Shown here piece after piece: positions 10,812 to 50,409 of a stretch of DNA of 64,000 nt. The notes below the pieces were generated by a model. That model had not been told where the DNA came from and searched no databases. It saw only the letters and a list, made by a program, of their open reading frames with translations. The stretch is taken from the NCBI GenBank assembly GCA_963663235.2, contig CAXXNO010000012.1:192001-256000 (forward strand), read 5' to 3'. A program made the position numbers and the translations under genes. Positions within the stretch are counted from its first letter, which is position 1. Each line of letters starts with the position of its first letter. This DNA comes from Dehalococcoidia bacterium. GTDB taxonomy: Bacteria; Chloroflexota; Dehalococcoidia; Bin125.

Positions 10812-11375
10812 ATGGCCTTACGTCGAGTGCCGCGCGAGGAGATGACCGAGCAAGAGAGGAAATGGCTCGACGACAGCAAGGCGTTGGGGCTAGACACGCG
10901 CTGGATCGAGTTCATCGCCAACGCGCCCCACGTGAGCCGGTTCCTCTGGGAGGACTTCTACCAGAAGCTCTTCTACAACGGCATCGTGCCGGTGCACATC
11001 AAGGAGTTGACGCAGCTCAAGCTATCCCATCTCCACGGCTGCGCGTTCTGAAACAAGGTGAATACCGTCTCGGCGAGACGGAACGGCGTCACCGACGAGC
11101 AGATCGAGGCCCTCGACACCTTTGAAACGGGGCCGTTCAGCGAACAAGAGAAGGTCGCCCTGCGGTTCGCGGGCAAGATGGCGCTCACGGAGCCGCACGG
11201 GGAGGTGGACGACAACCTGATGGCGCAGATGCAAGAGCACTTCAGCGACGCGCAGATCGCTGAGCTGGCAGTGGTCCTGTGCGTCGACGTGGGGTGGGCG
11301 AAGATGCTCTTCACCCTGGACTGGGCGGAGAAGGAGACCTCCTGCTACTACCGGCATCCGGCAGAGGCGGAGTAG
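10812..11375 (+). CDS. AhpD/carboxymuconolactone decarboxylase-like selenoprotein (CxxU; Sec at TGA 11049-11051)
   Basis: Track ORFs 10740-11051 and 11058-11375 are in frame, giving KELTQLKLSHLHGCAF-U-NKVN...FSEQEKVALRFA...HFSDAQIAEL; hairpin 13 nt after the TGA. Confidence 0.88.
11065..11081 (+). promoter_or_regulatory. Putative SECIS hairpin
   Basis: CCGTCTC-GGC-GAGACGG, 13 nt after TGA 11049-11051. Confidence 0.75.
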
Positions 11376-11497
11376 CGGGCGACCCCCGGCGCGTCCATTC
11401 GCCCGCCGATGGCTGGAGAGACTAGCACTTCGCCGGCCGCGAATCGGCGAGGGGGTCAGGAGTGGTCCGGGAAAGCGGCGGGGGCGCGGAGACGCGC

Positions 11498-11917
11498 CTA
11501 GCGAAGCTCGACGATTTCGATGGCGAAGGTGAGCGCCTGGCCCGCCAGGGGATGGTTGGCATCGAGGGTGATCGTGGCATCGTCGACGGCGGCGACGGTC
11601 ACGTCGCGTCCGCCGATCTCCACTCGGTCCCCGACGCTCAGGCCTTTCGGTCCCTGGTCGATCGGCAGTTTGATGACTCGCCGCTCATCGCGATCGCCGT
11701 ACGCCTGATCGGGATCAAAGCGAACCGTCTTGCTCTCGCCAAGCGCCATGCCCCGCACGGCGGCGTCGAACCCGGCGATGACCTCGCCCGCCCCGACCCG
11801 GAAGGAGAAGGGCTTGCCCCGCTGCCGCGAGGAATCGACGACGCGCCCGTCGTCCAGCGTGACAGTGTAGTGGACGACCACGGTGTCCCCGTCTTGGGCC
11901 GTTGCGTCCAGTGGCAT
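11498..11917 (-). CDS. FKBP-type peptidyl-prolyl isomerase (SlyD/SlpA-like, no His tail)
   Basis: VVVHYTVTLDDG, GEVIAGFD, AYGDRDE, LDANHPLAGQALTF. Confidence 0.92.
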   Translation of the reverse strand: MPLDATAQDGDTVVVHYTVTLDDGRVVDSSRQRGKPFSFRVGAGEVIAGFDAAVRGMALGESKTVRFDPDQAYGDRDERRVIKLPIDQGPKGLSVGDRVEIGGRDVTVAAVDDATITLDANHPLAGQALTFAIEIVELR

Positions 11918-11927
11918 CGGGCGTCGC

Positions 11928-12380
11928 TCAGCGGCGGAGGATCTCGAGGAGCTCGAGGACCGTCCCGTCCGGGTCCTTGAGACAGACGAAGCGTTCGCCC
12001 CCGGCCAGGTTGATGTTCTGCGGCTCGGAGAGGAACTGCACGCCCTTCGCCTTGAGATCCTCATAGACCTGGGGGAGATTCTCCGTCCGCAGGGCGATGC
12101 GGCTGGCGCCCGCGTGATGCAGATGCGGGTAGGCCTTCCCCTCCGTCTTGGGCGTGGTCCACTCGATAAGGTCGATGCGGGTCGCCCAGGGATCATTGCC
12201 GATGCGCAGGAGGCCCGCGCGAGCGACGCCCTCAGACATCCCCAACCCTTTGGCCAGCTCCGGCGTCAGCGCCGTCTCCGGCATATCCAGCACCACCTCA
12301 AAGCCCAGCAGCTTGTAGAACGCCAGGGAGCGCTCGAAGTCCGTGCAGTTGATGTTGATGTGGAACAGCCCTTTGATCAT
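11928..12380 (-). CDS. VOC/glyoxalase family protein
   Basis: HININCTDFERSLAFY, KDPDGTVLELLE. Confidence 0.88.
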   Translation of the reverse strand: MIKGLFHININCTDFERSLAFYKLLGFEVVLDMPETALTPELAKGLGMSEGVARAGLLRIGNDPWATRIDLIEWTTPKTEGKAYPHLHHAGASRIALRTENLPQVYEDLKAKGVQFLSEPQNINLAGGERFVCLKDPDGTVLELLEILRR

Positions 12381-12457
12381 CGTTTCCCCCCTGTGCAACG
12401 CCGATAGTGTACTGATACGAGGCCGAAATGGCTTCGCACACGGCCGGGCGGAACAGG

Positions 12458-13588
12458 TCAGGCGCGCATCGACTCGGGATCGATCCCGTGCTCCCGGCAC
12501 CACGCGCCATAAGCGATGGGCGAGATCTCAGACGGCTTGATCTCGCTGCGACCGCCCCAAAAGACATTGGTGTAGCCGACAGGGATGCCGGCTTCCTCCA
12601 GGTGCGCGTCGATGGCGGCCTTGTGCGCCAGCACCAAGTCCTTCTCCATGCCGTGCGCCACGCCCATGACGTTGACGTCGCGGAACTCCGGCCCGCCCTC
12701 GCGCCAGTAGGCGTGGGTCATGATGTGATGGCGGCCGACCTCCCGCCCGGCGTCGATCTCCCGGCCCGGTGGCACACGCCAGTGGAAGAGCGCATTGTAG
12801 CGGGTGACACGCTGGTCCCCGGCGACCGCCTTGGCATGCTCCAGGAACGTGGAGAAGCGCCCGATGATCTTGCGCCGATCGAGGGCCTCCGCCACCGCGC
12901 AGAACTCCTCCATGCTCATCCCCGCCTCGACGGCGCGGCGGCGCCACAGGTCCGGTTCGATCTCCTCCGGGCGAAATTCGCGCTTGAGCGTCTCCAGCGC
13001 CTGCCACTCGCGGTCGCTGAGCGTGGCGATCACCGTATCGAGAACCTCGGCGGGCTCCTCGCTGCGGCTTCCGGGCGCGAGCCCGCGCCGGCGCGTATGG
13101 CCCACACCCAAGGCGAACAGCCGTTTCGCCGGCATGGTCCGGTAGCCCTGGGCGCCAATCTCGGCCGCCAGGTAGTCGGCGTGCTTCCGCATCGAGAAGC
13201 CCTGGGGCACCTTGAGCGTGGTCCAGAGGCGGTAGGCCGATCCAGGCGTCTCCGCGTCGGTCGTGCGAATCACCACATGCCCGGAGAAGGGGTCCTGCTG
13301 GAACAGGTAGTCGAACGCGGCGGGGAGGCGGTCGGGCGGCACCTGCCAGGCGATCAGGGCCCCGTGCGCCAGGTTGGTCGATAGCAAGGTCTGGCGCACC
13401 CGACGGATGGTGCCGGCCTGCAACATCGCGCGGATGCGCTCGATCACGACCGGCAGCTCGACGCCCGAGCGGTGGGCGATCTCCGCCAGGGGATCGCGCT
13501 GGAAGCCTTGGAGGCGGTCTTCCGAAACCGAGAGGATGGCCACGTTGACGGGGTCATCAATGGTGACGGGGACCGTGGACAGCGGCAT
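12458..13588 (-). CDS. Single-chain AsnC-fold protein, siroheme decarboxylase (AhbA/B, NirDLGH)-like
   Basis: Two tandem HTH plus AsnC-like halves; THAYWR (HxYxR) motif in the C-terminal half. Confidence 0.7.
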   Translation of the reverse strand: MPLSTVPVTIDDPVNVAILSVSEDRLQGFQRDPLAEIAHRSGVELPVVIERIRAMLQAGTIRRVRQTLLSTNLAHGALIAWQVPPDRLPAAFDYLFQQDPFSGHVVIRTTDAETPGSAYRLWTTLKVPQGFSMRKHADYLAAEIGAQGYRTMPAKRLFALGVGHTRRRGLAPGSRSEEPAEVLDTVIATLSDREWQALETLKREFRPEEIEPDLWRRRAVEAGMSMEEFCAVAEALDRRKIIGRFSTFLEHAKAVAGDQRVTRYNALFHWRVPPGREIDAGREVGRHHIMTHAYWREGGPEFRDVNVMGVAHGMEKDLVLAHKAAIDAHLEEAGIPVGYTNVFWGGRSEIKPSEISPIAYGAWCREHGIDPESMRA

Positions 13589-13647
13589 GGACCGATGATG
13601 GCCGCCCGCGCTGCCGGACGCAAGCAAACCCGGCCGGGCCTCGCCGA

Positions 13648-14370
13648 TCACCCGCTCGACGACGGGCCGAACAGCAGCTGGACCCCATCGAGGTCCAGCA
13701 GACGGATGCGCCGGCGGCCCAGTTCCACCAGCCCCGCCTTGGCCATTTGATTGAGGGCCCGGCTGACGGACTCCCGCGTGGCGCCCACCATCTCCGCCAG
13801 ATCCTGCTGGGACAGATCGCGGACCGTCTGCGTCCGGGGATCACATTCCCGCAGCAGCACGGAAGCCAGCCGCGCCTCCAGCCGCTGATACGCCAGCGTC
13901 TCCAAGCGCACCTCGGCATCGCGGAGGCGGGCGGCCAAGTGCTCGATCACGCGGTCGGCGATGTCGGGGTGGTGGCGGAGCAGGCGCGATACATCGGCCC
14001 GGCTCATGGCGCAGACGAGGCTGTCTTAGGTCGCCTCAGCGAAACTGCCGGACATCCCCTGCCCTAAGACGGATATTTCCCCGAAAAAGGAGCCCGGCTT
14101 GACATCGCCGACGGTGAGTTTCTTGCCCTCCGTGTTGAGCCGGTAAAGCTGCACGTGCCCTTTCTTGAGAAGGAAGAGCACCTCATCTCCTCCTTGCGGC
14201 TCGTAGAGCACGCGGCCGGCGGGGCACGTGGTGAGGTTGGTCATCGCGTCGACCTCGGCCAGGGTGTCGTCGCCGAGATCACGGAACAATTCGTTCGCGG
14301 CAAGCAACGCCCGCTTCTCGGCCGCGGCCAGCTCCGGCCGTCCGCGCGCGCGGGAGAGCAGAGCCTTCAT
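13648..14370 (-). pseudogene. Crp/Fnr family regulator interrupted by an in-frame TAA (14026-14028)
   Basis: ...FFGEIS...SFAEAT*DSLVCAMSRAD...SQQDLAEMVGATRESVSR; both halves in one frame, with TAA where GAA is expected. Confidence 0.85.
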
Positions 14371-14642
14371 GTGGCCGACTGTTCCAGACGAGCCACGAGG
14401 GTGTCCAGCAGCGCCCGGCTGATCTGGGTCCGGGAGGGGGTGCCGAACTGGATCAGGCGGCCCTCCAGCAGGAAGGCCGGCACCGCGATGACGGTGTCGG
14501 GCGTCGGCTGTCCGGGCTCTAGGCGGTGGATCGTCACCCGGACCATGGGGAACCACTCTTGGACTTCGGCGGCGACGGCTTCCGCGGCATCGCAGCTGGG
14601 GCACTGATCGTCGAGATTGACGTCAAAGCTCAGGGTAGCCAT
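14367..14642 (-). CDS. Small thioredoxin-fold protein (CPSC)
   Basis: DDQCPSCDAA, IAVPAFLLEG, FGTPS; ATGA coupling to the Crp gene. Confidence 0.75.
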   Translation of the reverse strand: MATLSFDVNLDDQCPSCDAAEAVAAEVQEWFPMVRVTIHRLEPGQPTPDTVIAVPAFLLEGRLIQFGTPSRTQISRALLDTLVARLEQSAT

Positions 14643-14676
14643 GGCTCCAGCTTCGTGGACCTGCCCCGGTTCGTCG

Positions 14677-14691
14677 GTGACCGTGCTCACA
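14677..14691. promoter_or_regulatory. CRP-type binding site 1
   Basis: GTGA-CCGTGC-TCACA. Confidence 0.6.
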
Positions 14692-14753
14692 AAACAGGAA
14701 ACCGGGCCAGGTCCTATACTTCCCGCTGGGCTCGGCGGAATTTTTCCCCGAAA

Positions 14754-14767
14754 GTGATCGAGGTCAC
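14754..14767. promoter_or_regulatory. CRP-type binding site 2
   Basis: GTGA-TCGAGG-TCAC. Confidence 0.55.
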
Positions 14768-14852
14768 GGTGGCGGCAGCGGGCCACCCGTAGCCTCCCAC
14801 TAAGAGTCGCGTTCAAGCAGTCACAAAGCGATCGACGGAATGGGGAAATGGC

Positions 14853-15293
14853 ATGGGAAAGCACACGGCCCAGATCGACATCCAAGCCCCGGCGGACAAG
14901 GTGTGGGGAGTCATCACCAACGGGGAACGGCTGTCTGACTGGCTCAGCCCAGTCAGCAACGTGGAAGGGATTGAGCCGGCCGGCCCGCTGGCGGCCGGGA
15001 GCAAGCTGGAGGTCACCATCGGCAAGATCGGAGGAGCCAAGCTCAACATCAAAGAGGCGCAGCGCGGCCGGACGCTCCGCTGGAACGCGGGGCCGGCCAT
15101 GGCGCACATGATGCGCATGCCGATGAAGATCGAGCTGGACCTGCAGCCGCGGGGCGAGACCACCACGGCGACGATCACCTTCAAGACCAACCCGATGATC
15201 GCGCCCCTCATGAAGATGATGACCGGCCTCAACTTCAAGGAAGAGGCGCCGAATACGGTGCAGAAGCTGAAGGCCGCGGTGGAAAGCGCCTAG
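14853..15293 (+). CDS. SRPBCC (polyketide cyclase/START-like) family protein
   Basis: IDIQAPADKVWGVI...LSDW; C-terminal LKAAVES helix. Confidence 0.85.
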   Translation: MGKHTAQIDIQAPADKVWGVITNGERLSDWLSPVSNVEGIEPAGPLAAGSKLEVTIGKIGGAKLNIKEAQRGRTLRWNAGPAMAHMMRMPMKIELDLQPRGETTTATITFKTNPMIAPLMKMMTGLNFKEEAPNTVQKLKAAVESA

Positions 15294-15305
15294 CGGGAGC
15301 CTCCC

Positions 15306-15760
15306 ATGCCAGTGCGGAAGCTGATGCGGGATCCCGTCGCGGATCTCGAGCGTGTGGCCGACGAGGCGCTCGGCCCGCCGGTCGTTGAGCGGATCGAGAA
15401 AGAGTTGGGCGACGCCCGCTGTTGCCGCTGATCGCCTTAGGGATGGTCGGCGCCGGCGTGGTGCTCATCGTCGTTCTGACGATCATCGCCGGGACCCTTT
15501 CCGACAACTTCGGCGCCGGCGGGGACTCAGAGCTCGCCGCGAGGACGTTCAAGCCCTGGTTCCGCATCACCTTGCTCACCGGCGCTGGGATCATCCTGGC
15601 GGGCATCCTCACCATGCTGCTCGCCATCATCGTGCGGATCTGGTGGGTGACGTTTACCAACATCAACTACCTGCCGGTGATCGTGGACGCGCGCCGTCAG
15701 GCCGCGGGCCGGCCGGCCCGGTTCACGACCGACAACGCGACGCGGAACGGAGAGAACTGA
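15306..15760 (+). CDS. Hypothetical 2-TM membrane protein, apparently frameshifted near 15407
   Basis: GGAG RBS and ATG 15306 read MPVRK...KELG, and the hydrophobic body continues in the -1 frame (RRPLLPLIALG...); one extra G in TTGGGC restores the frame. Confidence 0.6.
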
Positions 15761-16443
15761 TGGCCGTACGCACCGCGATCAAGCCGTCCGAGGCGTTGAC
15801 GCAACGGGTCAACGCGAGGGTGGCGGCGTTGCCGCCCGTGCACATGACCGCCATGCAGACCATGGCCACCTTCCTGTGGCGGCCGCTGGCGCTGATGGGC
15901 ATCCTGATGCTCGCCTCCGGGGCGATCATCGCCGGGGTCAGCTCGTTCCGGGTGGACGAGTTCTTCGGGCTCGCGCAGCCGGACCTCGGCGCGGAGGCGA
16001 CGTTCACCAGCATCCAGACGTGGCTGCCCGGCTACCAGTTCATGGGCATGGGCTTCCTGTTTGCGGCCATCACCATGGTGGTGGCGTCGCTCCTGGGCCG
16101 GCTGCGGATCCTTGGCGGCACGGTGCAAACCTCGCTGGGAGCGCAGGTCAGGTTCCCGCCCTTCCCGATGACGGCACGGATCTTTCCGCTGCTGATGCTC
16201 CTCGGCTTGATGGTCTTCATGGCCCAGCTGGGCGTCAGCGCCTGGCTGGCCACGGAGGCGAAGAGCGGTGACCTGCTGACGGTGGCCACCCACGCGGACT
16301 GGCTGCAGGGCATGCGGATCGCCGGGGTGGGGATCATGCTCGCCGGCATCGCGCTGGCCCTCTTCACCATCACCGGCCTGATGCGCTTCATGGCGCGGCG
16401 CGTGAGCGAGGTGGCAATCCAGGCGATCGAGGCGGACTCGTAG
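15760..16443 (+). CDS. Hypothetical 4-TM membrane protein with internal repeat
   Basis: TGATG coupling; two W-x7-GxG-x2-[LF]A[GA]I units. Confidence 0.8.
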   Translation: MAVRTAIKPSEALTQRVNARVAALPPVHMTAMQTMATFLWRPLALMGILMLASGAIIAGVSSFRVDEFFGLAQPDLGAEATFTSIQTWLPGYQFMGMGFLFAAITMVVASLLGRLRILGGTVQTSLGAQVRFPPFPMTARIFPLLMLLGLMVFMAQLGVSAWLATEAKSGDLLTVATHADWLQGMRIAGVGIMLAGIALALFTITGLMRFMARRVSEVAIQAIEADS

Positions 16444-16472
16444 GACGGGATGCCTGGTTCCCTGGCAGCGGT

Positions 16473-16490
16473 GGCGTCGACCTCGACGCC
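16473..16490 (-). promoter_or_regulatory. Putative SECIS hairpin for the second Sec, in the 3' UTR
   Basis: GGCGTCG-AGGT-CGACGCC on the minus strand, 13 nt after TGA 16506-16504. Confidence 0.65.
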
Positions 16491-16491
16491 G

Positions 16492-16809
16492 TCAGCGATG
16501 CGCTCAGGTAGGTCCGTGCACGTGGGCGCGCATGGGCTCCACGTCGACGGCGAACCACTTGAAGAAGAGGAAACGATTCAGGCGCAGGTCAACGCCCTTG
16601 GCCCATTGCACGAGCCGGAACGACAGGAGGATCTGGAGGCCATCCTGCTGGACCACCTGATAGCGGGAGGTGTTCTTGCCCTTGAGGTAGGTGTCGACCG
16701 ACACCTCCGGCTTGCCGCCTCAGCCGATGGGTGGGATGAAGTCGATGGCCATCGTCCCACCTCGGCGTTGCACCTCGTCGATCACGTCCGTGGTCAAGGT
16801 GATCTGCAT
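16492..16809 (-). CDS. Small HesB/CC-Se-like selenoprotein with two candidate Sec residues (TGA 16720-16722 and 16504-16506), 105 aa
   Basis: GGAGG RBS; MQITLTT...IDFIPPIG-U-GGKPEVSVD...YQVVQQDGLQILL...AHVHGPT-U-AHR-stop; each TGA has a hairpin 13 nt downstream. Confidence 0.8.
16689..16706 (-). promoter_or_regulatory. Putative SECIS hairpin for the first Sec
   Basis: AGGTGTC-GGTC-GACACCT on the minus strand, 13 nt after TGA 16722-16720. Confidence 0.78.
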
Positions 16810-16973
16810 GAGTGCCTCCGCGCGCCCGCAGCGGCCGCCGTCTTGCCATACGCCCGCGGCGTGCCGGCGGATGTGGGCTGGGCTCCGGCCTAGATTATCA
16901 TCGGGATGGTTCAGTTTCGACGTGCGCGCTGAAGCGCGCACAGGCTCAGTGGAGGACGCGGAAGGGAGGACCT

Positions 16974-18182
16974 ATGGAACGAATACGAATGTACGGCGCC
17001 CCTTGGTGCCCGGACTGCCGCCGCGCCAAGGCGTTCTTGAGCGAGCATCGCGTGCCCTACGACTGGCTCGACGTCGATCACGACGCCGAGGCGCTGCGCT
17101 ACATCCAAGAGCTGCAGAACGGCGGCCGCAGCATCCCCATGCTGTTGTTCGAGGACGGCAGTTCTCTGGTGGAGCCGACCAACGAAGATCTTGCGCGCAA
17201 GTTGCATCTCAAGCTGGAAGCGGAGCGATCGTTCTACGACCTCGCCATCATCGGCGGCGGCCCCGCAGGGCTCGCCGCAGCCATCTACGCCGCCCGCGAG
17301 GGCATCGGCGCGATCGTCATCGATCGGAGTGCCCTGGGGGGCCAAGCAGGCGTGACCGATCGGATCGACAACTATCCGGGTTTCCCGGAGGGCATTGGCG
17401 GGGCCGAGCTGGCGGAGCGCTTCGTGCAGCAGGCTCGGCGCTACGGCGTCGAGTTGGTCTCAGCCGTCGGCGTGGATGAGGTCAGCACGGAGGAGCAGGA
17501 CGTGCTGCTGCGCCTCAGCAGCGGCCAGACGATCTGCACGCACGCGGCGATCGTGGCGACCGGATCAGTGTATCGGCGGCTGGGAGTGCCCGGCGAAGAG
17601 GATCTCATCGGCGCCGGGGTTCACTTCTGCGCAACCTGCGACGGGCCTTTCTACAAAGGGGCGGAGGAGTTGCTCGTGATCGGTGGGGGAAACTCCGGGA
17701 TGGAGGAAGGCTTGTTCCTCTCGCAGTTTGCGGAGCGGATCCGCGTGGTCGAGTCTTCGCCGGAACTCAAGGCGTCACAGCTGCTCCAAGACAAGGTCCG
17801 CGCCCACCCGAAGTTCAGCGTGCACACCAATACCCAGGTGATCGAGATCCGCGGCGAAAGGAAAGTGGAGGAGGTCGTGGCGCGGGATCGCGAGAGCGGC
17901 CAGGAGTTTCACTGGACTCCCAGCGCCGTGTTCGTCTTCATCGGCCTGACGCCCAACACAGACTTCGTGAAGGGCACGCTGGACCTGGACCAGTGGGGCT
18001 TCATCACCACGGACGACACCTTGCAGACGTCGATGCGAGGCGTCTTCGCGGCGGGCGACGTGCGGGCGGGCGCCACCAAGCAGCTCGGTTCCGCCGTCGG
18101 CGAAGGCATCACCGCGCTCCTGATGGTGCGCCAGTATCTCCAGCAGCGGACGCACCTCAGCGCCACGCCGGTCAACGCGTAA
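16974..18182 (+). CDS. Glutaredoxin-thioredoxin reductase fusion
   Basis: N-terminal YGAPWCPDC Grx domain, then IIGGGPAG, CATCDG, GGGNSG and GVFAAGD; GGAGG RBS. Confidence 0.92.
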   Translation: MERIRMYGAPWCPDCRRAKAFLSEHRVPYDWLDVDHDAEALRYIQELQNGGRSIPMLLFEDGSSLVEPTNEDLARKLHLKLEAERSFYDLAIIGGGPAGLAAAIYAAREGIGAIVIDRSALGGQAGVTDRIDNYPGFPEGIGGAELAERFVQQARRYGVELVSAVGVDEVSTEEQDVLLRLSSGQTICTHAAIVATGSVYRRLGVPGEEDLIGAGVHFCATCDGPFYKGAEELLVIGGGNSGMEEGLFLSQFAERIRVVESSPELKASQLLQDKVRAHPKFSVHTNTQVIEIRGERKVEEVVARDRESGQEFHWTPSAVFVFIGLTPNTDFVKGTLDLDQWGFITTDDTLQTSMRGVFAAGDVRAGATKQLGSAVGEGITALLMVRQYLQQRTHLSATPVNA

Positions 18183-18204
18183 GCAGCACGGCGCCCCGGA
18201 CACC

Positions 18205-19071
18205 ATGCGTCTGACCCTCGGCGAGCACGAGATTGATTGCACCGACCGCACGGCGATCATGGCGATCCTGAACGTCGAGACAGATTCCCCCATCGCGGAG
18301 AGTGTCGTGGCGGTGGAGGAGGCCGTGACCCGCGGGCGGGCCTTGCGCGACGCCGGGGCAGAGATCATCGACGTAGGCGCGCACTCGACCCGCAGCGACG
18401 CGACGCCGATCTCACCACAGGAGGAGATCGAGCGTCTCTGCCCGGTGATCGAGAGGCTGCGGGCGGAAGGGATGATCGTTTCGGTCGACACCTGGACCCC
18501 GGCGGTGGCGCTGGCGGCGGCCCAGGCCGGCGTGCACATCCTCAACGACGTCAGCGGGGCGAGCGATCCGGCGATGGTCGCGGTCGCGGCGGAGCATCGG
18601 CTGCCGCTGATCATCATGCACATGCGTGGCCGGCCGACGCAGCATCGCCAAGCGGACCAGCGCTACGCGGACGTGGCCGCCGAGGTGCGCGGGTTCCTCA
18701 CCCAGCGCGCCGCGCAGTTGAGCGAGGCAGGCGTCGAGCAGGTGTGGCTGGACCCGGGCTTCCAGTTCGGCAAATCAGCGGCGGACAACGTACGCCTGCT
18801 GCTGGATTTGCCCAATCTCCTGGCGTTGGGTCGCCCGGTGGTGGTATCGGCGTCACGGAAGGGTTTTCTGTCGGAGCTGCTCGGGCACGGCGACCGGCAA
18901 GATGCGCCCGGCCTGCTGCCGGCCACGATCGCCGTGAACACGCTGGCGGCCTACTGGGGCGCCCACATTGTGCGCGTGCACGACGTGGCGGAGATGGCGG
19001 CCGCTCTGCGCATCGTGAACGGAGTCCGCGCCCAACGCCGCCTGGATGACGGCGCGCCGCCGTCCAACTGA
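18205..19071 (+). CDS. folP: Dihydropteroate synthase
   Basis: IMAILNV, IIDVGAHSTR, VSVDTW, LNDVSG, DPGFQFGK, SRKGF, IVRVHDV. Confidence 0.92.
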   Translation: MRLTLGEHEIDCTDRTAIMAILNVETDSPIAESVVAVEEAVTRGRALRDAGAEIIDVGAHSTRSDATPISPQEEIERLCPVIERLRAEGMIVSVDTWTPAVALAAAQAGVHILNDVSGASDPAMVAVAAEHRLPLIIMHMRGRPTQHRQADQRYADVAAEVRGFLTQRAAQLSEAGVEQVWLDPGFQFGKSAADNVRLLLDLPNLLALGRPVVVSASRKGFLSELLGHGDRQDAPGLLPATIAVNTLAAYWGAHIVRVHDVAEMAAALRIVNGVRAQRRLDDGAPPSN

Positions 19072-19098
19072 TACAATCGATCAGCGGAGCGAAGAGCC

Positions 19099-19305
19099 AT
19101 GCCCACGTACCAGTTTCGTTGCAAGGACGGCCACGAGTTCGAGCGTCTCATGTCGTTCGCCGAATTCGACCGCAGCAAGCGGGTGCGCTGCCCGGAGTGC
19201 AAGAAGGGCGCGACGCGCGCGCCGGGGGGCTTCCTGTCCTTTAACAGCAGCCAGACGCCGCTCAAGGCGGGCCGACCGCAACAGACCCGCTACCACCCCT
19301 GGTAG
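19099..19305 (+). CDS. FmdB family zinc-ribbon protein
   Basis: MPTYQFRC..GHEFE...CPEC. Confidence 0.85.
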   Translation: MPTYQFRCKDGHEFERLMSFAEFDRSKRVRCPECKKGATRAPGGFLSFNSSQTPLKAGRPQQTRYHPW

Positions 19306-19317
19306 GCGCCCGGCCAC

Positions 19318-20163
19318 ATGACCACGGAAGCCGTGGCGGACATCACCGACGGGACCTTCGCCAGCGAGGTGCTAGAGCGCTCGCGCGAGGTGCCGGTCGT
19401 CGTCGATTTTTGGGCCCCTTGGTGCGGCCCCTGCCGCCACCTGAGCCCCACGCTGGAGCAACTGGCCCAGGAGTACGCCGGTAAGGTCCGCCTAGTAAAG
19501 GTCAACATCGACGAGAATCCCGCCGTCGCCGGGCGGCTCGGCGTCCAGAGCATCCCCGCCGTCATGGCGTTCCGCGATGGAGAGATCGTCGACCAGTTCG
19601 TCGGGGCGCTGCCGGAGCCCGACGTCCGGCGTTTCTTCGAATCGACGCTGCCGTCCCCAGCCGACCTGCTGGTGGCCGAGGCGGCGCAATCGCTCGCTGG
19701 GGGCGACGTCGCCGCAGCCGAGCGGGCCTATCAGTCAGCGCTGGCGGGAGACCCCCGCCACGCGGACGCCGCGCTGGGACTCGCGGCGCTCGTCCTGGAC
19801 CGAGGTGACCTCCCGCAGGCAGGCGCCCTGGCCGAGCCATGGGCCGGCGACGCGCACGGCAAGCGGATCCTGGGATTGATCAGTCTACGGCTGGCGGCCG
19901 AGGGTGCGACACGCGCCGAGATCGAAGAGCGCCTGCGAGCGGATGAGCGCGACGCGGCGGCGCACTATGTCCTCGGCGCCCTGCTCGCCGTCGAGGGCGA
20001 ATGGGACGCCGCGCTGGAGCACCTGCTGGAAACCGTCCGGCTGGACCGCGCCTTCGCCGACGACGGCGGCCGTCTGCGGATGCTGGACGCCTTCAACGTC
20101 CTCGGCGACGACGATCCGCTCACGCAGAACTACCGTCGCAGGCTGAGCGCGGTTCTCTTCTAA
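19318..20163 (+). CDS. Thioredoxin-TPR chaperedoxin (YbbN/CnoX-like)
   Basis: VDFWAPWCGPC followed by a TPR region ending YRRRLSAVLF. Confidence 0.92.
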   Translation: MTTEAVADITDGTFASEVLERSREVPVVVDFWAPWCGPCRHLSPTLEQLAQEYAGKVRLVKVNIDENPAVAGRLGVQSIPAVMAFRDGEIVDQFVGALPEPDVRRFFESTLPSPADLLVAEAAQSLAGGDVAAAERAYQSALAGDPRHADAALGLAALVLDRGDLPQAGALAEPWAGDAHGKRILGLISLRLAAEGATRAEIEERLRADERDAAAHYVLGALLAVEGEWDAALEHLLETVRLDRAFADDGGRLRMLDAFNVLGDDDPLTQNYRRRLSAVLF

Positions 20164-20193
20164 CGCGTCGCGAGAGCGAAAACGAGACGGCCT

Positions 20194-23223: not shown

Positions 23224-23233
23224 GGAGAGCGCT

Positions 23234-23761
23234 ATGGTCCAGATCCTCGACCCCACGGATGAACGGAAGCCGGTCCAGCGACGGCTGGCGCCGCGGCCCG
23301 AAGCGCTGGAGGGCACAGTGGGCCTGCTGGATATCTCGAAGCCGCGGGGCGACGTGCTGATCGATCGCATCGAAGAGCTGTTACACGACAAGGCTCCGTC
23401 GCTCACCATCAAGCGCTACCGCAAGCCGACTTTCTCCAAGCCCGCGCCGGCGGCGCTGTTGGAAGAGATCAAGGAGGGCTGCGACTTCGTCATCGAAGCG
23501 TTGGCCGATTGAGGGTCGTGCACCACGTGCAGTGTGCACGACACGACCTGGCTAGAGACCCACGGGACGCCGGCGCTGTTCATCGCTTCGTCGGCGTTCA
23601 CGGAAGCGGCGCAGAAACAAGCGACAGCGCTGGGCCTGCCGCAGGTGCGACGCGCAATCGTACCGCACCCGATCCAGGGCCAGAGAGACGAAGAGATGCG
23701 CGCGCGGGCCGACGCCGTGGCGGATGAGCTCATCGAGGCGCTGCTGCGGCCGCCGGACTAG
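23234..23761 (+). CDS. UGSC family selenoprotein (Sec at TGA 23510-23512)
   Basis: Track ORFs 23234-23512 and 23534-23761 are in frame, giving IEALAD-U-GSCTTCSVHD; hairpin at +14. Confidence 0.92.
23526..23540 (+). promoter_or_regulatory. Putative SECIS hairpin
   Basis: CGTGCA-GTG-TGCACG, 13 nt after the TGA. Confidence 0.75.
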
Positions 23762-36790: not shown

Positions 36791-36797
36791 GCGTCCG

Positions 36798-41116: not shown

Positions 41117-41152
41117 CAGCCGGGGCGACAGACGGGGCGCATGCCGGAGCGA

Positions 41153-41672: not shown

Positions 41673-42425
41673 GTGGCTGACGACGGTGCAATCGTTGAAG
41701 CGGAACAGGTGCACAAGACGTATCGCTCGGGAGGGCGCGCGGAGGTGCACGCGCTGCGCGGGGTCTCTCTCTCCGCGCCGCGCGGCGAGATGGTCAGCAT
41801 CATGGGGCCGTCTGGCTGCGGCAAGACGACGCTCCTCAACGCGCTCTCCGGGCTGGACGACATCGACTCCGGCGAGATCCGCATCGAGGGACGGGAGATC
41901 CAGAAGCTCTCCGACAACGCCCGCACCGACTACCGCGCCCGGCGGATGGGCTTCATCTTCCAGTTCTACAACCTGCTGCCCGTGCTCTCGGCGGTGGAGA
42001 ATGTGGAGTTGCCGTTGCTGGTGAGCGGGGTCCCCGCCCGTGAGGCGCGGACCCGAGCCATGGCCGCGCTGGAGCAGGTCCACCTCACAGACTGGGCCCA
42101 GCACCGGCCGGCCCAGCTGTCCGGCGGTCAGCGCCAGCGCGTGACCATCGCGCGGGCGCTGGTCAACAACCCCGCCATCGTCTGGGCGGACGAGCCCACG
42201 GGTGACCTGGACAGCACCAACGCCGGCGAGATCATGGACTTCATTCAGCAGCTCAACGAGCAAAACAGTCAGACGTTCGTGATCGTCACGCACGACGAGG
42301 GGGTCGGGGGGCGCTGCCACCGGACCATCCACATGCGGGACGGCCGCATCGAGGGGGAGACGCAGCACCGGCCATTCCAGCCGCGTACGGGGGTCGCCGC
42401 AGCCGAGTCCGCGGGCAGCGCATGA
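41673..42425 (+). CDS. ABC transporter ATP-binding protein (LolD/MacB-type)
   Basis: [25 protein letters not shown]; GGAGG RBS before GTG. Confidence 0.95.
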
Positions 42426-45400: not shown

Positions 45401-45748
45401 GCGCTGGGCGTCATCGCGTGGCGGGCGGTGGTCGAGCGGCGCCAGCAGATCGGCGTGCTGCGGGCCATCGGTTACCGCCGCGGGATGGTGCGGCTGGAGA
45501 TGCTGTTGGAGATGGGCTTCATCGCCGCGCTGGGGATCGGGATCGGGATCGCGCTGGCGCTGGCGCTCGCCTGGCGCCTCTTCGACGAGCAGACGTTCGG
45601 CGGCTTCGGCGGGATCGCCTTCCAGATCCCGGTGGTGGAGATCGTCATCTTCGCCGCCGCCGCGCAGACCGGCGCGCTGCTCATGACCTACCTGCCGGCC
45701 CGTCAGGCGGCCCGTCTGCCGCCGGCGGAGGCCCTGCGCTACGAGTAG
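42422..45748 (+). CDS. FtsX-like ABC permease (1108 aa)
   Basis: [13 protein letters not shown] and [13 protein letters not shown] FtsX motifs; ends PAEALRYE. Confidence 0.92.
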
Positions 45749-45757
45749 GAGCGCCGG

Positions 45758-46594
45758 ATGACGGCCCCGACCCTGGACCCCGCCACCCGCGCGCTCTTCT
45801 ATCGCTACGACCGCGCCCTCCCGCTCAACGCCGAAACCACCGTGGTCGCCGATTCCAAGGCGCTGCGCATTGAGCGGTTCGCGATCTCCTCGCGCCACGA
45901 TGCGCGGGTGCCCGGCCTGTTTCTGCACAACCCGAACGCCGGCGAGCCCCGCCCGACTGTGCTGATCGCGCACCCGGCCACGCTCGATAAGAGCAGCGAC
46001 TACGTCATGGAGCCAGCGCGCGCTTGGGTGGAGCGCGGCGCGATCTGCGTGACCATCGACCAGGCCGGACACGGCGAGCGGCGCGACGGCGCGCTGGACG
46101 TCCGCGAGTCGCTGCGCTCCCCGGTCCGGCGGGCGGACGAGTCGGTACAGACCGCGGTCGACTGGATGCGCACCGTGGACTACATCATCGGGCGGCCCGA
46201 GGTGGATGCAGAACGCATCGGCTTCGCGGGCTTCTCCCTTGGGGGCATGCGCGGCGCGGCCTTCGTGGGGCTGGACGCGCGGGTGAAGGCCTCCGTCTTC
46301 GCGATCTGCGGCGCGGCGGGATCGGTCCGGGCCCAGGTCAAAGGCGACGACGCCGACGCCATCGCCGCTTCGCTCGCCATCACCGACCCTTTGCACTTCG
46401 CCCCCCTGATCGCGCCGCGCGCCGCGCTCGTGCTGGCCGGGCGGCAAGATGACTACGTGCCGCCGGAGTCGACGCAGGCGTTCTTCGACGCCCTCGGCGA
46501 CCCCAAAGCGATCCAGTGGCTGGACTGCGGCCACTTCGACTTTTGGCCGCAAGGGCTGGCGCCCATCTGGCCCTTTCTGGAGTCGCACCTCTAA
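45758..46594 (+). CDS. Alpha/beta hydrolase (dienelactone hydrolase/esterase-like)
   Basis: GHGER, RIGFAGFSLGG, DDYVP, GH. Confidence 0.85.
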   Translation: MTAPTLDPATRALFYRYDRALPLNAETTVVADSKALRIERFAISSRHDARVPGLFLHNPNAGEPRPTVLIAHPATLDKSSDYVMEPARAWVERGAICVTIDQAGHGERRDGALDVRESLRSPVRRADESVQTAVDWMRTVDYIIGRPEVDAERIGFAGFSLGGMRGAAFVGLDARVKASVFAICGAAGSVRAQVKGDDADAIAASLAITDPLHFAPLIAPRAALVLAGRQDDYVPPESTQAFFDALGDPKAIQWLDCGHFDFWPQGLAPIWPFLESHL

Positions 46595-46631
46595 CCGCCC
46601 ACCGAGCGGTCGATCACGGACTGGAGCAGCG

Positions 46632-47547
46632 ATGCGAGCCGTCTACATCACAGAGCAGGGTGGGCCGGTCGCGCGAGTTCGCGGAGCCGTTCATTCTCGG
46701 CGCCGATATCGCCGGGACGGTGGCGGCGCTTGGGGCTGGAGCGGAGGCGGTGTCGGTCGGTCAGCGCGTGCTCATCAACCCCGGCATCAGCGACAACACC
46801 TGCGACTACTGCTTGATTGGCAAGAGCAACCTCTGCCGCACCTACAGGCTGCTGGGCCTGCACGTGAACGGGGGCTACGCCGAATACGTGAAGGCGCCGG
46901 CCGAGAACATCCACGCGATCCCCGATTCGCTGCCGTTCGACGAGGCGGCGGCGATCCCGCTCACCGTCGCCACCGCCTACCACATGCTGGTGACCCGAGC
47001 GCGCATCCGCCCCGGTGACAGCGTCTTAGTGCAGGCGGCGGGCAGCGGCGTCGGCGCCGCGGCGATCCAGATCGCCAAGGCGCTGGGCGCCTGGGTCGTG
47101 ACGACCGCCGGCAGGGACGACACGCTGGCCAAGGGGATCGCGCTGGGCGCCGACGCGGGCATCAACTACACCGCCGAGCCGCGGTTCAGCGAGCGCGTGC
47201 GCGAGCTGACCGACGGCGAGGGCGTGGACATCGTGATCGACCACATCGGACCGGCCACGTTCGACGAGAACCTCAAGTCGCTCAGGCGGGGCGGCCAGCT
47301 CCTCAACTGCGGGCGCACCACCGGCGAGGTGGTGGAGCTGCCCCTGTTCCAACTCATGCTCAACCAGCAGACCGTGCACGGCACCTTCATGGGCACCAAG
47401 GCGGAGATGCAGGACTGGATGCGGCTGGTCCGCACCGGGAAGATCCGTGGCGTGGTGGGTGAGACGTTCGCACTGCAGGACGCCGCCGAGGCGCACCGAC
47501 GGATGGCGAGCCGGCACTTCTTCGGCAAGCTGGTGCTGCGGCCGTAG
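46632..47547 (+). pseudogene. Zinc-binding dehydrogenase (MDR) with an internal deletion/frameshift near 46667
   Basis: RBS plus MRAVYITEQGGP in one frame, then PFILGADIAG...CDYC..C...AAGSGVG...FGKLVL in another; the intervening GroES segment is absent. Confidence 0.78.
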
Positions 47548-47560
47548 GACCAGAAAGCGC

Positions 47561-47590
47561 TTGACAGCGTATATTAGTGATTGCTAATAT
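47561..47590 (+). promoter_or_regulatory. Sigma70 promoter with operator inverted repeat for the TA operon
   Basis: TTGACA-18 nt-TAATAT overlapped by ATATTAG-N6-CTAATAT. Confidence 0.78.
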
Positions 47591-47594
47591 CCCC

Positions 47595-47963
47595 ATGGCC
47601 TGGCGGATCTATCAGTATCAGAGCCGGCGCGGCGACCTGCCGCTGGACGACTACCTCGCGAGACTGAGTCCGAAAGAGCGCGCGGTGGCTCTGCGGTTCA
47701 TCAGCCGCCTAGCAGAGTTTGGTCCTCAATTGGGTGAGCCCCACGTCAAGCGACTGCACGATCCCCGTCGACAGCTTTTCGAGCTCCGTCCCGGCGCGCA
47801 TCGGATCTTCTTTTGTTGCGTCGTGCGGAATGCGGTGGTGCTGCTGCACGGCTATCGCAAGCGGTCGACGAACACCCCACCGCGAGAGTTGACGACCGCT
47901 CAGCGGCGCTACGACGAAGTGGTCGGCGGATCCTCAACGCCGCTATTGGGAAAGAGTCAATGA
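47595..47963 (+). CDS. RelE/ParE superfamily toxin (HigB/Gp49-like)
   Basis: LGEPHVKRL, LFELR, RIFF, VLLHGYRKRS..TP..EL. Confidence 0.9.
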   Translation: MAWRIYQYQSRRGDLPLDDYLARLSPKERAVALRFISRLAEFGPQLGEPHVKRLHDPRRQLFELRPGAHRIFFCCVVRNAVVLLHGYRKRSTNTPPRELTTAQRRYDEVVGGSSTPLLGKSQ

Positions 47964-48361
47964 TCGCGAACGCCGTCCCCTGGGAAGAGTCGAAGCGTAG
48001 GCTCCTCGCCGACCCAGAAACCCGCGCCGCCTACGACGCGCTGGAGGATCGTTACCAACTGACCAGGGGACTGATCCGCATCCGCCTGGAAGCCGGCCTC
48101 ACTCAGGCCCAGGTGGCGCGGCGGATGGGCGTGACACAGGGGCGGGTGGCGCAAATCGAGTCTCTGAACAGTACCGCCCTCCCCAGCCTCACGAGCATCC
48201 GTCGCTTCGCGGCGGCCTGCGGACAGCAGCCGGTGATCGGGTTTGAGCCGCTGGCAGAGGACTCGCGCGCGTCCACGAAGTCACCTCGGGCGCTGAAAGT
48301 CGCGGAACGGCGCCGCCGAAGCTACGCAGCCAAAGCGAAACCGCGGCCGCGTCGACGCTAG
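47960..48361 (+). CDS. XRE-HTH antitoxin (HigA-like)
   Basis: LLADPETRAAYDAL, RLEAGLTQAQVARRMGVTQGRVAQIE; ATGA overlap with the toxin. Confidence 0.9.
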   Translation: MIANAVPWEESKRRLLADPETRAAYDALEDRYQLTRGLIRIRLEAGLTQAQVARRMGVTQGRVAQIESLNSTALPSLTSIRRFAAACGQQPVIGFEPLAEDSRASTKSPRALKVAERRRRSYAAKAKPRPRRR

Positions 48362-48402
48362 GGGCCGCCGGTCGCGCCCGCCCCGCTTGCTACACTGCGA
48401 CC

Positions 48403-48549
48403 ATGCGGCTGCAGTTGAAGCTGGCCCTGGCCGGCGCGGCGCTGATCGTTGGGCTGCTGATCGTGATCCTGATCAACAGCAGCCTGGGCGTCGACAGCGA
48501 CGAGACGATCACCGATCTCAACCGCCCGGAGATCGTGGGCGAGCGGTAG
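48403..48549 (+). CDS. Small single-TM protein, 48 aa (below the track cutoff)
   Basis: MRLQLKLALAGAALIVGLLIVILINSSLGVDSDETITDLNRPEIVGER; TACACT -10 element 6 nt upstream; GC3-rich codons. Confidence 0.68.
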   Translation: MRLQLKLALAGAALIVGLLIVILINSSLGVDSDETITDLNRPEIVGER

Positions 48550-48574
48550 GCCGTCCGCCTCACAGGAGCGTCGC

Positions 48575-48883
48575 TTGCCCAAAGTCACCATCGAGCCGTC
48601 CGGGATCGAGATCGAGGTTTCCCGGGGCGAGACGATGATGGCCGCGGCCCGCGCCCAGGGGTACTACTGGCCCACCACCTGCGACATGCAGTGCCGCTGC
48701 GCGACCTGCTTCGTCATCGTGCTGGAGGGCGCCGACCACCTCTCGCCCATGTCCGCCGCCGAGCGCAAGGCCTTAATCGAGCAGCGCGGCCGGCGGGCCC
48801 TGGAACAGCTGGTGCGCCTGGGCTGCCAGGCCTCGGTCCACGGCGACGTCACTGTGCGCAAGCCCGGCGTCCGGCTCGAGTAG
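48575..48883 (+). CDS. 2Fe-2S ferredoxin
   Basis: CDMQCRCATC...RLGCQ; AGGAG RBS before TTG. Confidence 0.88.
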   Translation: MPKVTIEPSGIEIEVSRGETMMAAARAQGYYWPTTCDMQCRCATCFVIVLEGADHLSPMSAAERKALIEQRGRRALEQLVRLGCQASVHGDVTVRKPGVRLE

Positions 48884-49051
48884 AGCCCGCGAGCCCGGCC
48901 CTGAGGCCGTCCCTGAGTCGCTACTGCGCGGCCGTCGGCATATTGATAAGAGTCGTAGTTCTCGGCCGCTCGGATAGAGCGATCCGATATAATGCGTATC
49001 GCCCGGAACCAGTGGGCGGGGCGTGAGGCCCGTGACGTCCGGGGGGGCACC

Positions 49052-50035
49052 ATCGAGATCGGCCGGCTTGAAGCGTTCGTGCGCGTCGCGCAATTGCGCT
49101 CCTTTTCGAAGGCGGCGGAGGCGATCTACCTCACGCAGCCCACGGTGACCGCCCGCATCCAGGCGTTGGAGCGGGAGCTGGGCGAGCCAATGTTCGAGCG
49201 GATGGGACGCAGCATCCGCCTCACCGACGCCGGGGCGGCCTTCCTGCCCCACGCGCAGCGCGCGCTCCAGGCGCTGGTCGAAGGCCGCGACGCCCTGGTC
49301 AGCGTGCGCAACGTGGAGCACGGCACGCTGGCATTGGGGACGGCCCCCACCGTCGGCACCTACGTCTTGCCTCGGCTCTTGGAGCGCTTCGCCGATCGCC
49401 ATCCCGGCGTGGAGATCACCATTCGCACCGGCCGCTCCGAGGAAGTGATGGCCATGGTGCTGGCGGACGAGGTCCAGGTGGGCTTGGAACGCTACCTGAA
49501 CCACCCGGACATCGAGACCGTGCCGTTGTACCAGGACGCCATCTTCCTCATGGCGGGCACGGACCATCCCATCGCCCAGCGTCAGCGGGTGCGTGTCCAG
49601 GACGTCGTGCACGAGTCCGTCATCTTCTTCGACGTCGGCTCGTCGTATCACGCCATCAGTCACGGGATCTTCCGCGAGACGGGCACGCCGCCCCGGCACG
49701 CGCTGGAGGTCGACAACCTGGAGATGGCCAAGCACCTGGTGCTCGAGGGGCTGGGCCTGGCGTTCCTGCCGCAAGTCGCGGTGGAGCAGGAACTAGCGGA
49801 AGGCCAACTGGTCACCATCGACATCGAGGGCGCCGAGCCACTGACACGGGAGATCGCCGTGATCTATCGCAAGCACCGCCTCCAGAGCCGCTCCGTGGTG
49901 GCGTTCCTTAACCTCCTGCAAGAGGTGTACCAGTTCGAATACCCCGATCCGGAGGGCGCTCCAGCGACGGAAAGCGACACCCGGCCCACCGGAGAGGGCG
50001 AGCGCGCCGCGCCCGCCGCCGGGCGGCGCGGCTGA
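49052..50035 (+). CDS. LysR family transcriptional regulator (start uncertain: ATC 49052 or ATG 48992)
   Basis: SFSKAAEAIYLTQPTVTARIQALERELG..MFER, LTDAG, GLGLAFLP. Confidence 0.92.
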   Translation: MEIGRLEAFVRVAQLRSFSKAAEAIYLTQPTVTARIQALERELGEPMFERMGRSIRLTDAGAAFLPHAQRALQALVEGRDALVSVRNVEHGTLALGTAPTVGTYVLPRLLERFADRHPGVEITIRTGRSEEVMAMVLADEVQVGLERYLNHPDIETVPLYQDAIFLMAGTDHPIAQRQRVRVQDVVHESVIFFDVGSSYHAISHGIFRETGTPPRHALEVDNLEMAKHLVLEGLGLAFLPQVAVEQELAEGQLVTIDIEGAEPLTREIAVIYRKHRLQSRSVVAFLNLLQEVYQFEYPDPEGAPATESDTRPTGEGERAAPAAGRRG

Positions 50036-50049
50036 ACGGAGGCAGTGTC

Positions 50050-50409
50050 GTGCCGCCTGCGCCGACCTTCTTCTGCAAGAGGGGCTGAAGCACCTGCAAT
50101 CGAGCCCGTGCATGGCTCCAGGCGCAAGGAGTAGCCTTTGACGAGCGAGAGTTCTTTCGCAGCCCGCTGACGCCCGCTGAGCTCCACACCTTGATCGGCC
50201 AGCGCGAGGCGCGCGAGCTTTTCGCCGCGCGAAGCCCGAGCGTGCGCAAGCGCGGCCTCAACGTCGACAGCCTGACCGACGATCAGATGCGCGCGCTGAT
50301 GCTGGAGGAGCCGCGTCTGCTGCGGCGGCCGCTGTTGAGAATTGGGCGGCGGGTGCTGGTGGGCTTCAACGAGAGCGCTTGGCGAGAGGCGCTGCCGCGG
50401 GAGCCTTGA
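50050..50409 (+). CDS. ArsC/Spx/MgsR family selenoprotein (UxxC; Sec at TGA 50086-50088)
   Basis: GGAGG RBS plus GTG: MPPAPTFFCKRG-U-STCNRARAWL...EPRLLRRPLL...LVGFNE, in frame with track ORF 50191-50409. Confidence 0.88.
50102..50118 (+). promoter_or_regulatory. Putative SECIS hairpin
   Basis: GAGCC-CGTGCAT-GGCTC, 13 nt after the TGA. Confidence 0.6.

Follow-up and report, generated by a model that had tools for sequence, protein, structure and literature searches.

Introduction

In the Escherichia coli gene fdhF, the selenocysteine insertion sequence (SECIS) is a hairpin just 3′ of the UGA codon, with a G/U-containing apical loop held at a set distance, and it is read by SelB. Its minimal upper stem-loop contains a bulged U and begins 11 nucleotides (nt) past the UGA. 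The bSECISearch model of Zhang and Gladyshev, as summarized in a recent review (PMC13188914), describes bacterial SECIS elements by an apical loop of 3 to 9 nt, an upper stem of 4 to 16 base pairs (bp), a G in the first two loop positions that is mostly followed by G or U, a distance of 16 to 37 nt from the UGA to the loop, and a minimum free energy of −7.5 kcal/mol or lower. The same review places these elements within coding regions. Here, we analyze a 64,000-nt stretch (hereafter, the window) from a Dehalococcoidia bacterium (Chloroflexota, Bin125; assembly GCA_963663235.2, contig CAXXNO010000012.1, positions 192,001 to 256,000), in which five in-frame TGA codons are each followed, after 13 nt, by a hairpin with a G in its loop. 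A preliminary description of the window had read this fixed spacing as a SECIS rule of the lineage. We infer, with high confidence, that all five TGAs, distributed over four genes, encode selenocysteine (Sec), each with an ordinary bacterial SECIS, and that the spacer they share is coincidental.

Several described families come close to the genes of the window. Among the SECIS figures of the Sargasso Sea survey (PMC1088965) are AhpD-like and arsenate reductase examples. The table of the review lists NF041239, a family with one Sec and the motif CxxU, as well as TIGR01911, the HesB-like selenoprotein, with motif UxGP (PMC13188914). The same table holds UXX-star and other families with a C-terminal Sec (NF041212 and NF041211), in which Sec stands a few residues before the stop. 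This is also the arrangement in a small protein of the window, which differs from them in fold and family.

Results

Four candidate selenoprotein genes

Translation through TGA gave four open frames, in which all five TGAs are probable Sec codons by homology; the count of four selenoprotein genes made in the preliminary description was well founded. In the assigned families, the U occupies the position of the redox or active-site Cys, and the domains span it.

The first gene (10740..11375, plus strand; start at ATG 10740 or ATG 10812) encodes an AhpD/CMD-like protein with the motif C-A-F-U, its Sec codon (U104) lying at 11049..11051 (+). The protein matches the Pfam domain CMD (PF02627) with 48.8 bits (cut-off, 23), the domain spanning U, and NCBIfam NF053654 (YciW-related (seleno)protein) with 64 bits, under the curated cut-off of 310. 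An ArsC/Spx-like gene (50050..50409, +) starts at GTG 50050, with GGAGG a few bases upstream, and reads G-U-S-T-C near its N-terminus (Sec codon U13, 50086..50088, +). Its product has the UxxC motif and matches Pfam ArsC (PF03960) with 60.1 bits (cut-off, 24) and NCBIfam NF041106 (ArsC family (seleno)protein) with 47.1 bits, under the cut-off of 85. The two proteins appear to be relatives, not members, of NF053654 and NF041106. They have the same folds and the same Sec position (CxxU in the CMD-like and UxxC in the ArsC-like protein) as the AhpD-like and ArsC-like families of the Sargasso Sea and Global Ocean Sampling (GOS) data illustrated in PMC1088965.

The third gene (23234..23761, +) carries its Sec codon (U93) at 23510..23512 (+), within the motif D-U-G-S-C. 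It scores 160.6 bits with NCBIfam NF041046 (cut-off, 125) and 169.9 bits with Pfam PF24696 (cut-off, 25), and its predicted product is a full, ordinary member of the UGSC family, from which we found no difference. The "UGSC-containing protein" is reportedly a family of the GOS survey. It is also listed in the table of the review (PMC13188914).

The fourth gene, on the minus strand (16492..16809), encodes a small protein of ~105 residues with a predicted IscA/SufA fold and two Sec codons. U30 (16720..16722, −) lies in PPIG-U-GG, and U102 (16504..16506, −), the fifth TGA of the preliminary description, lies in the C-terminal HGPT-U-AHR; the real stop is the TGA at 16494-16492.

Five hairpins that fit the bacterial SECIS consensus

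The five TGAs and the sequences downstream of them are exactly as first written, at positions 11049, 16720(−), 16504(−), 23510 and 50086. For the two minus-strand TGAs, these are the low coordinates, the full codons being 16722-16720 and 16506-16504. A script placed the stem start exactly 13 nt past the A of the TGA at all five, each stem being a maximal perfect Watson-Crick helix with no outward extension. In the order just given, stems of 7, 7, 7, 6 and 5 bp close the loops GGC, GGTC, AGGT, GTG and CGTGCAT (3, 4, 4, 3 and 7 nt), which start 20, 20, 20, 19 and 18 nt after the TGA. The hairpins occupy 11065..11081 (+, CMD-like gene), 16689..16706 (−, SECIS 1 of the small gene, inside the coding region), 16473..16490 (−, SECIS 2 of the small gene, wholly past the real stop and so in the 3′ untranslated region, UTR), 23526..23540 (+, UGSC gene) and 50102..50118 (+, ArsC-like gene). 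Each is part of the minimum-energy fold of its 47-nt stretch (ViennaRNA; −14.8 to −18.6 kcal/mol).

Compared with the fdhF element, the window stems are perfect and start at 13 nt. All five hairpins agree with the published consensus in loop size, stem length, loop G and the distance from UGA to loop, and the 13-nt spacing is a narrow subset of what the bSECISearch model allows. Placement within coding regions holds for four; the fifth (16473-16490) lies past the real stop.

At each site, a short stem is capped by a small loop that opens with G (followed by G or U) and begins 18 to 20 nt past the UGA. By analogy with E. coli, SelB carrying Sec-tRNA(Sec) would bind this loop as the ribosome reaches the UGA, and Sec would be delivered instead of termination. 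Four hairpins would act from within the coding sequence and the fifth from the 3′ UTR.

Conservation and constraint at the RNA level

We collected 80 orthologous loci of the small gene from one-per-species genomes of Dehalococcoidia, other Chloroflexota, Acidimicrobiia and Nitriliruptoria. The sequence of SECIS 1 is exact in 60 of the 80, and its spacer is 13 nt in 78 of the 80, across two phyla; this spacing is therefore a trait of the small-protein family, and the lineage specificity first claimed for the geometry does not stand. Where the register is standard (78 orthologues), each of the five codons that encode V-S-V-D-T in the hairpin has the same wobble base in 76 to 78 sequences, and in the next five codons the synonymous forms vary freely (for example, 57 versus 21, 62 versus 15 and 51 versus 27). 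One orthologue has a double compensatory change in the stem.

For UGSC, all the matches listed, found in 20 of 61 genomes of the class, have the in-frame TGA. Of 11 orthologous loci compared, those with altered stems change both arms together, along with the encoded amino acids, and the GTG or GTT loop stays at 19 nt. The ArsC-like gene has the TGA in 26 of 31 matches among 121 genomes of the class; in the one that we read (L179) of the five matches without TGA, a Cys stands at the aligned position. Its three closest relatives have the same hairpin with a stem of 6 to 7 bp, and in more distant orthologues the stem has 8 bp, begins at spacer 15 and covaries, compensatory variants being present. 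The CMD-like gene occurs in 3 of 61 genomes of the class, and the TGA and the same hairpin are present in all four copies: the window gene, a paralogue in the same genome and two orthologues from other genomes. This hairpin is identical in three relatives, and the flanking synonymous sites vary. The 3′ arm of its stem (11075-11080) encodes an Arg pair as AGA-CGG in 4/4 copies. AGA is presumably a rare codon in a genome of 68% G+C, and its retention is consistent with selection that acts on the RNA and not on the protein.

Agreement with the published consensus, conservation of the TGAs in relatives and covariation of the stems together support the original identification of these hairpins as SECIS elements. 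Their geometry is in each case a trait of the family, shared by distant genomes, and not a lineage-specific one.

The UGSC family is much more numerous in some relatives. A 5.0-Mb Dehalococcoidia genome (G056; 7% contamination) has at least 54 UGSC matches, each with an in-frame TGA, among the 57 candidates scored out of 190, and another genome of the class (G058) has 20. These look like a very large expansion of one selenoprotein family.

Sec machinery, and the possibility of gene decay

The draft genome, assembled from a metagenome, comprises 14 contigs and 2.75 Mb, with 68% G+C and 92% completeness. No sel genes lie within the 64-kb window, as noted at the outset, and no tRNA does; selA, selB, selD and tRNA-Sec are found elsewhere. 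On the contig of the window (C12), selB lies 60 kb upstream (C12:131112-132980; 359 bits against a cut-off of 242). On other contigs are selA (552 bits), selD (358 bits, with an in-frame TGA of its own) and, on C4, tRNA-Sec. Absence of selB or selC had been named as an argument against Sec insertion here; both genes are present. ARAGORN also reports a 100-nt "tRNA-?(SeC|Leu)" at C5:159277-159376, with a shortened anticodon loop and acceptor-stem mismatches and unlike the tRNA-Sec on C4. This element is probably spurious or the remnant of a decayed gene.

An alternative is gene decay, in which nonsense mutations or errors of assembly produced the TGAs and the hairpins arose by chance in GC-rich DNA. 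Chance alone places such a hairpin after about 0.8% of all TGAs, the assembly is a draft, and one pseudogene-like transposase copy elsewhere in the genome has a TGA in place of the TGG of its paralogues. However, the same TGAs stand at the same codon in many independent genomes and at catalytic Cys positions, the coding signal continues downstream of them, and the Sec machinery is complete. We consider decay or error exceedingly improbable as an explanation of the five TGAs, and Sec codons with SECIS elements remain by far the better account.

A probable second Sec codon served by a 3′-UTR hairpin

After the TGA at 16504, three sense codons precede another TGA. The first of these TGAs might be the true stop and the hairpin a terminator or another 3′ element, which would leave four Sec codons in the window. 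The shortness of the remaining frame suits that explanation, as does the resemblance to a terminator of any hairpin past a stop codon. Gene callers, too, end 7 of 18 database homologues at the second TGA of the gene, all 18 being stored as fragments of 64 to 69 residues that begin just past the first TGA. However, the other 11 of the 18 continue as x-x-C-x-H, with a Cys at the aligned position, so that TGA 16504 aligns with an otherwise invariant Cys (C102 in the alignment). Neither the window nor its two closest orthologues have a T-run past the hairpin.

Those two orthologues, from genomes of the same family, retain both TGAs and have the tail H-G-P-T-TGA-A-H-stop, with a hairpin of wholly different stem sequence 12 to 13 nt past the second TGA. 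Over the 80 loci, the first site is TGA in 80 of 80, with no Cys form. The second is TGA in 31 of 80, and in 31/31 of these, it precedes two or three conserved codons (x-H, in some loci with G) and then a stop. Another 39 loci were scored as Cys forms, and 10 were left out because they were cut or had the Cys farther from the end.

We scored a hairpin in each sequence as at least 6 bp, G-U pairs allowed, with a G-containing loop starting 17 to 24 nt past the codon. Such a hairpin follows 26 of the 31 Sec forms and 7 of the 39 Cys forms; it is common only with the TGA. Dinucleotide-type shuffling of the Sec forms gave a mean of 2.0 of 31 and a maximum of 6 in 200 rounds. The 26 hairpins comprise 18 different inner stem sequences, at spacers of 10 to 16 nt (mode, 12), and their loops are of the SECIS type (GTC, GGT, GGTC, GTT and GGC). 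RNAalifold, run on a MAFFT alignment of the 31 3′-UTR stretches in which the variable spacers were misaligned, returned no pairs.

Set against these observations, a true stop at 16504-16506 is unlikely. TGA 16504 is probably a Sec codon, and the pattern fits a 3′-UTR SECIS that serves a Sec four codons before the stop. That closeness to the real stop would explain why the hairpin falls in the 3′ UTR. UXX-star and the other families with a C-terminal Sec (NF041212 and NF041211) share with the small protein a Sec a few residues before the stop (review table, PMC13188914), a position that forces the SECIS into the 3′ UTR. For the small protein, the contrast between Sec and Cys forms documents the UTR hairpin, a point of difference from those families.

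A small protein with a predicted iron-sulfur carrier fold

An AlphaFold model of the small protein built from 67 orthologues has a mean predicted local distance difference test score (pLDDT) of 87.7 and a predicted template modeling score (pTM) of 0.76. It is poor over the last 15 residues, where pLDDT averages 67 (residues 91-100) and then 53 (residues 101-105). A Foldseek search of the PDB with this model returned A-type iron-sulfur carriers, namely SufA 2d2a (E = 1e-4; template modeling score, 0.63), IscA 1x0g and IscA 1r94. IscA carries one Cys roughly one third into the chain and a second at the C-terminus, an arrangement that the two Sec/Cys sites of the small protein share. At the C-terminus of IscA the motif is C-G-C, and the His-rich C-terminal motif of the small protein is unlike it. 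The invariant columns of the small protein include U30 and U/C102 and, in the database set, H96 and H98. If IscA is a guide, the two Sec/Cys residues and the histidines could form a metal- or cluster-binding site.

The only NCBIfam family that the protein touches is NF041239 ("CC/Se motif family", "Moor_selen_rel"), at 25.7 to 25.8 bits, under the cut-off of 40. The match spans positions 1-89 of the model's 91, and 65 of 67 orthologues match at E ≤0.01 (best orthologue, E = 8.2e-11); searched against the genome in six frames, NF041239 matched nothing at E up to 1. The family's listed motif is CxxU, whereas the small protein has I-P-P-I-G-U with no Cys three residues before Sec, a Cys that is lacking in all 80 loci. 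The protein also differs in having its second Sec/Cys in a C-terminal tail, H-x-H-x-P-x-U/C-x-H, that lies beyond the model. On these comparisons, it appears to be a sub-threshold relative of NF041239 only.

The IscA/SufA and HesB-like proteins match it in fold, without a match in sequence. TIGR01911 does not match the small protein at E up to 0.01, nor does any Fe-S carrier family in NCBIfam or Pfam. By sequence, the small protein does not belong to TIGR01911: that model's only match in the genome is a different, TGA-free gene, and the fold alone is shared.

Divergent from the double-Sec gene and beside it lies a gene for a glutaredoxin domain fused to a pyridine-nucleotide disulfide oxidoreductase (16812-18179, +). 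Past that fusion is a gene for a thioredoxin-TPR protein (19318-20160). Within 1.5-kb flanks, the small gene has no conserved neighbors: the fusion recurs at 1 of the 80 orthologous loci and three other neighbors at none.

We tentatively suggest, as a possibility we rate below even, a broader view of this family. It would be an obligate selenoprotein at site 1 (TGA in 80/80, in Chloroflexota and Actinomycetota) that toggles between Sec and Cys at the C-terminal site 2 and has a covarying 3′-UTR SECIS whenever that site is Sec. A His-rich site with two seleniums (U30, H96, H98, U/C102 and H104) on an Fe-S-carrier fold would suggest a metal- or cluster-binding protein not yet described as a double selenoprotein.

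Sec codons across the genome and the spacer rule

The preliminary description proposed that the lineage's SelB demands a stem exactly 14 nt after the UGA, and that this G-loop hairpin could be used to find new families. We compared the spacing at Sec codons throughout the genome, using a candidate list made blind to hairpins. A codon log-odds score, trained on 919 long frames with high G+C at third codon positions, retained 179 of 17,053 in-frame TGAs, namely those with coding-looking frames both upstream and downstream. The first coding-potential filter had missed three known cases (UGSC, ArsC-like and selD) and was then relaxed. Pfam was scanned with 175 of the 179 candidates (the other four, the window genes, were scanned separately) and NCBIfam with 18, and the position of U was compared with the domain spans.

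At least 20 selenoprotein genes with 21 Sec codons emerged; in each of the 20, a domain covers the U, which takes the place of a catalytic or redox Cys. The number is a lower bound, as the filter demands at least 15 codons past the TGA and a clear coding signal. The set comprises selD, FtrB-like, two glutaredoxin-like, DsbA-like, OsmC-like, an ArsM-like methyltransferase, a second CMD-like gene (CMD-2), AhpC/TSA, a SelL-related AhpC-TSA_2, SelW-like, a second UGSC (UGSC-2), rhodanese, two PrdB/GrdB-like genes, a CUAEP-tail radical SAM protein and the four window genes. "Selenoprotein-rich" has been used for genomes with at least six such genes (PMC5029168), and the genome is rich, as foreseen. 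Such richness is already published for Dehalococcoidia in the BSepDB paper, where genomes with 49 and 46 selenoproteins are among the largest (PMC13326102). A literature search found no paper combining "selenoprotein" and "SAR202".

The strict rule required, at spacer 13, a perfect stem of maximal extent with 5 bp or more and a G-containing loop of 3 to 7 nt. It holds for 5 of the 21 Sec codons, all of them in the window. The other 16 have spacers of 8, 10, 10, 10, 12, 12, 15, 15, 17, 18, 25 and 28 nt, with four lacking a simple hairpin. These tallies combine 19 codons scored together (4/19 for the strict rule and 12/19 for the loop test that follows) with the second TGA of the small gene and CUAEP (spacer 12). 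A perfect hairpin whose G-loop starts 17 to 25 nt after the UGA follows 14 of 21 Sec codons, compared with 32 of 553 ordinary stops and 214 of 3,590 Cys codons (~6% of controls). For a bulge-free version of the published model, the corresponding counts are 14/21, 88/553 and 433/3,590. The common trait is a G-containing loop, mostly at 17 to 25 nt, and not the spacer.

A hairpin that fits the strict rule follows 463 of 59,888 TGAs on both strands of the genome, 31 of 3,590 in-frame Cys codons of long genes, and 3 of 553 confident ordinary TGA stops, which have a coding signal upstream and none downstream. At any one spacer, 0.6 to 0.8% of the 59,888 TGAs have such a hairpin, and the frequency is flat across spacers 0 to 40. 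In the window, 15 of 1,490 TGAs satisfy the rule, against a chance expectation of ~11. Ten of these are additional to the five described here; all ten have 5-bp stems and mostly non-coding-looking frames by the coding score. The hairpin alone is not beyond chance in a genome of 68% G+C. What is beyond chance is its coincidence with TGAs that homology marks independently as Sec positions. The concern that such hairpins might be equally frequent after ordinary stops is not borne out (3/553 stops versus 5/21 Sec codons).

A lineage rule at +14 would account for spacer 13 at 5/5 Sec codons of the window and for its rarity after ordinary stops. However, 0 of the 16 other homology-supported Sec codons have it. 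The paralogues CMD-2 and UGSC-2 keep the loop position of the window copies (20 and 19 nt), with stems that start at 12 and 10. The 3′-UTR hairpins of the small-protein orthologues add their own variation, at 10 to 16 nt, and 463 genome-wide matches are returned for 5 true ones. We find a SelB requirement of this kind very unlikely, and neither the fixed spacer as a rule nor its use as a finder of new families survives these counts. Spacers of 8 to 28 nt across the 21 Sec codons therefore indicate that there is no fixed-spacer requirement in this organism. That all five window spacers are 13 nt is coincidental, each family having its own geometry, and is not a property of the Sec machinery.

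Other TGAs and loci in the genome deserve mention. TGA 6384 of the window fits the rule and resembles an ordinary stop. The infB stop was rejected as a Sec codon, being an ordinary stop with a chance 5-bp hairpin at spacer 13. We also rejected a transposase copy (C8:168005; locus L069:693-1649), in which a TGA, probably a nonsense mutation, replaces the TGG (Trp) that two paralogous copies carry in E-N-P-T-W-G. On C12, outside the window, a DUF1801 gene (C12:335390; locus L088:15793-16152) has an in-frame TGA within the domain (I-K-U-G-Y-P) and no G-loop hairpin after it. The position is presumably that of a Trp, and the gene could be a pseudogene, a case of read-through or something else. A tandem NIPSNAP protein (C4:707639; locus L038:304-918) has an in-frame TGA close to the end of the first domain and is either one selenoprotein or two adjacent genes. 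The frame of the AhpC/TSA selenoprotein (C5:45281; locus L049:6220-6642) stops 55 codons past Sec, and the Pfam match covers only positions 1-82 of 124, which may reflect a downstream frameshift or an assembly error. Selenoprotein genes also cluster: AhpC/TSA, SelW-like and UGSC-2 lie within 6 kb (C5:45281-50703) and the four window genes within 40 kb (11049-50118), out of ~20 genome-wide.

Discussion

Several points weigh against our reading of five Sec codons with ordinary SECIS elements and a coincidental spacer. Folding energy alone fails to set the five hairpins apart, with z-scores of −0.3 to −2.1 against shuffles, which are uninformative in such GC-rich DNA. As isolated, bulge-free hairpins in our own implementation of the published model, those of the UGSC and ArsC-like genes are weaker than −7.5 kcal/mol, and the 64-kb window has no Rfam match at the gathering threshold. 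The sets of true stops and of candidates rest on our own codon log-odds score rather than on a validated gene caller. The orthologue counts include related genomes, so that their independence, and with it the rank test on the UTR hairpins, is overstated. In addition, finding 5/5 at exactly 13 nt is improbable if spacers are drawn from the genome's range of 8 to 28 nt, and the shared spacer may have a local cause.

Much of what we describe is known biology together with re-annotation. The four window genes and at least 16 others in the genome are cut or split at their Sec codons by standard gene calling. A neat local regularity should not become a search rule: of the 21 real Sec codons, the strict one captures 5, amid 463 matches. 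The looser published model recovers about two thirds of the Sec codons, with a background of 12 to 16% in this GC-rich genome.

The double-Sec IscA-fold protein with a 3′-UTR SECIS may be new, although this small family may already be present in the tables of the BSepDB paper (PMC13326102) or of the 2026 review (PMC13188914). If our view of the family is correct, the hairpin at its second site would be a natural bacterial 3′-UTR SECIS documented by comparison across many genomes. Its UTR hairpins would provide a natural series of spacers (10 to 16 nt) and of stems free of coding constraint, in which the needs of SelB can be studied.

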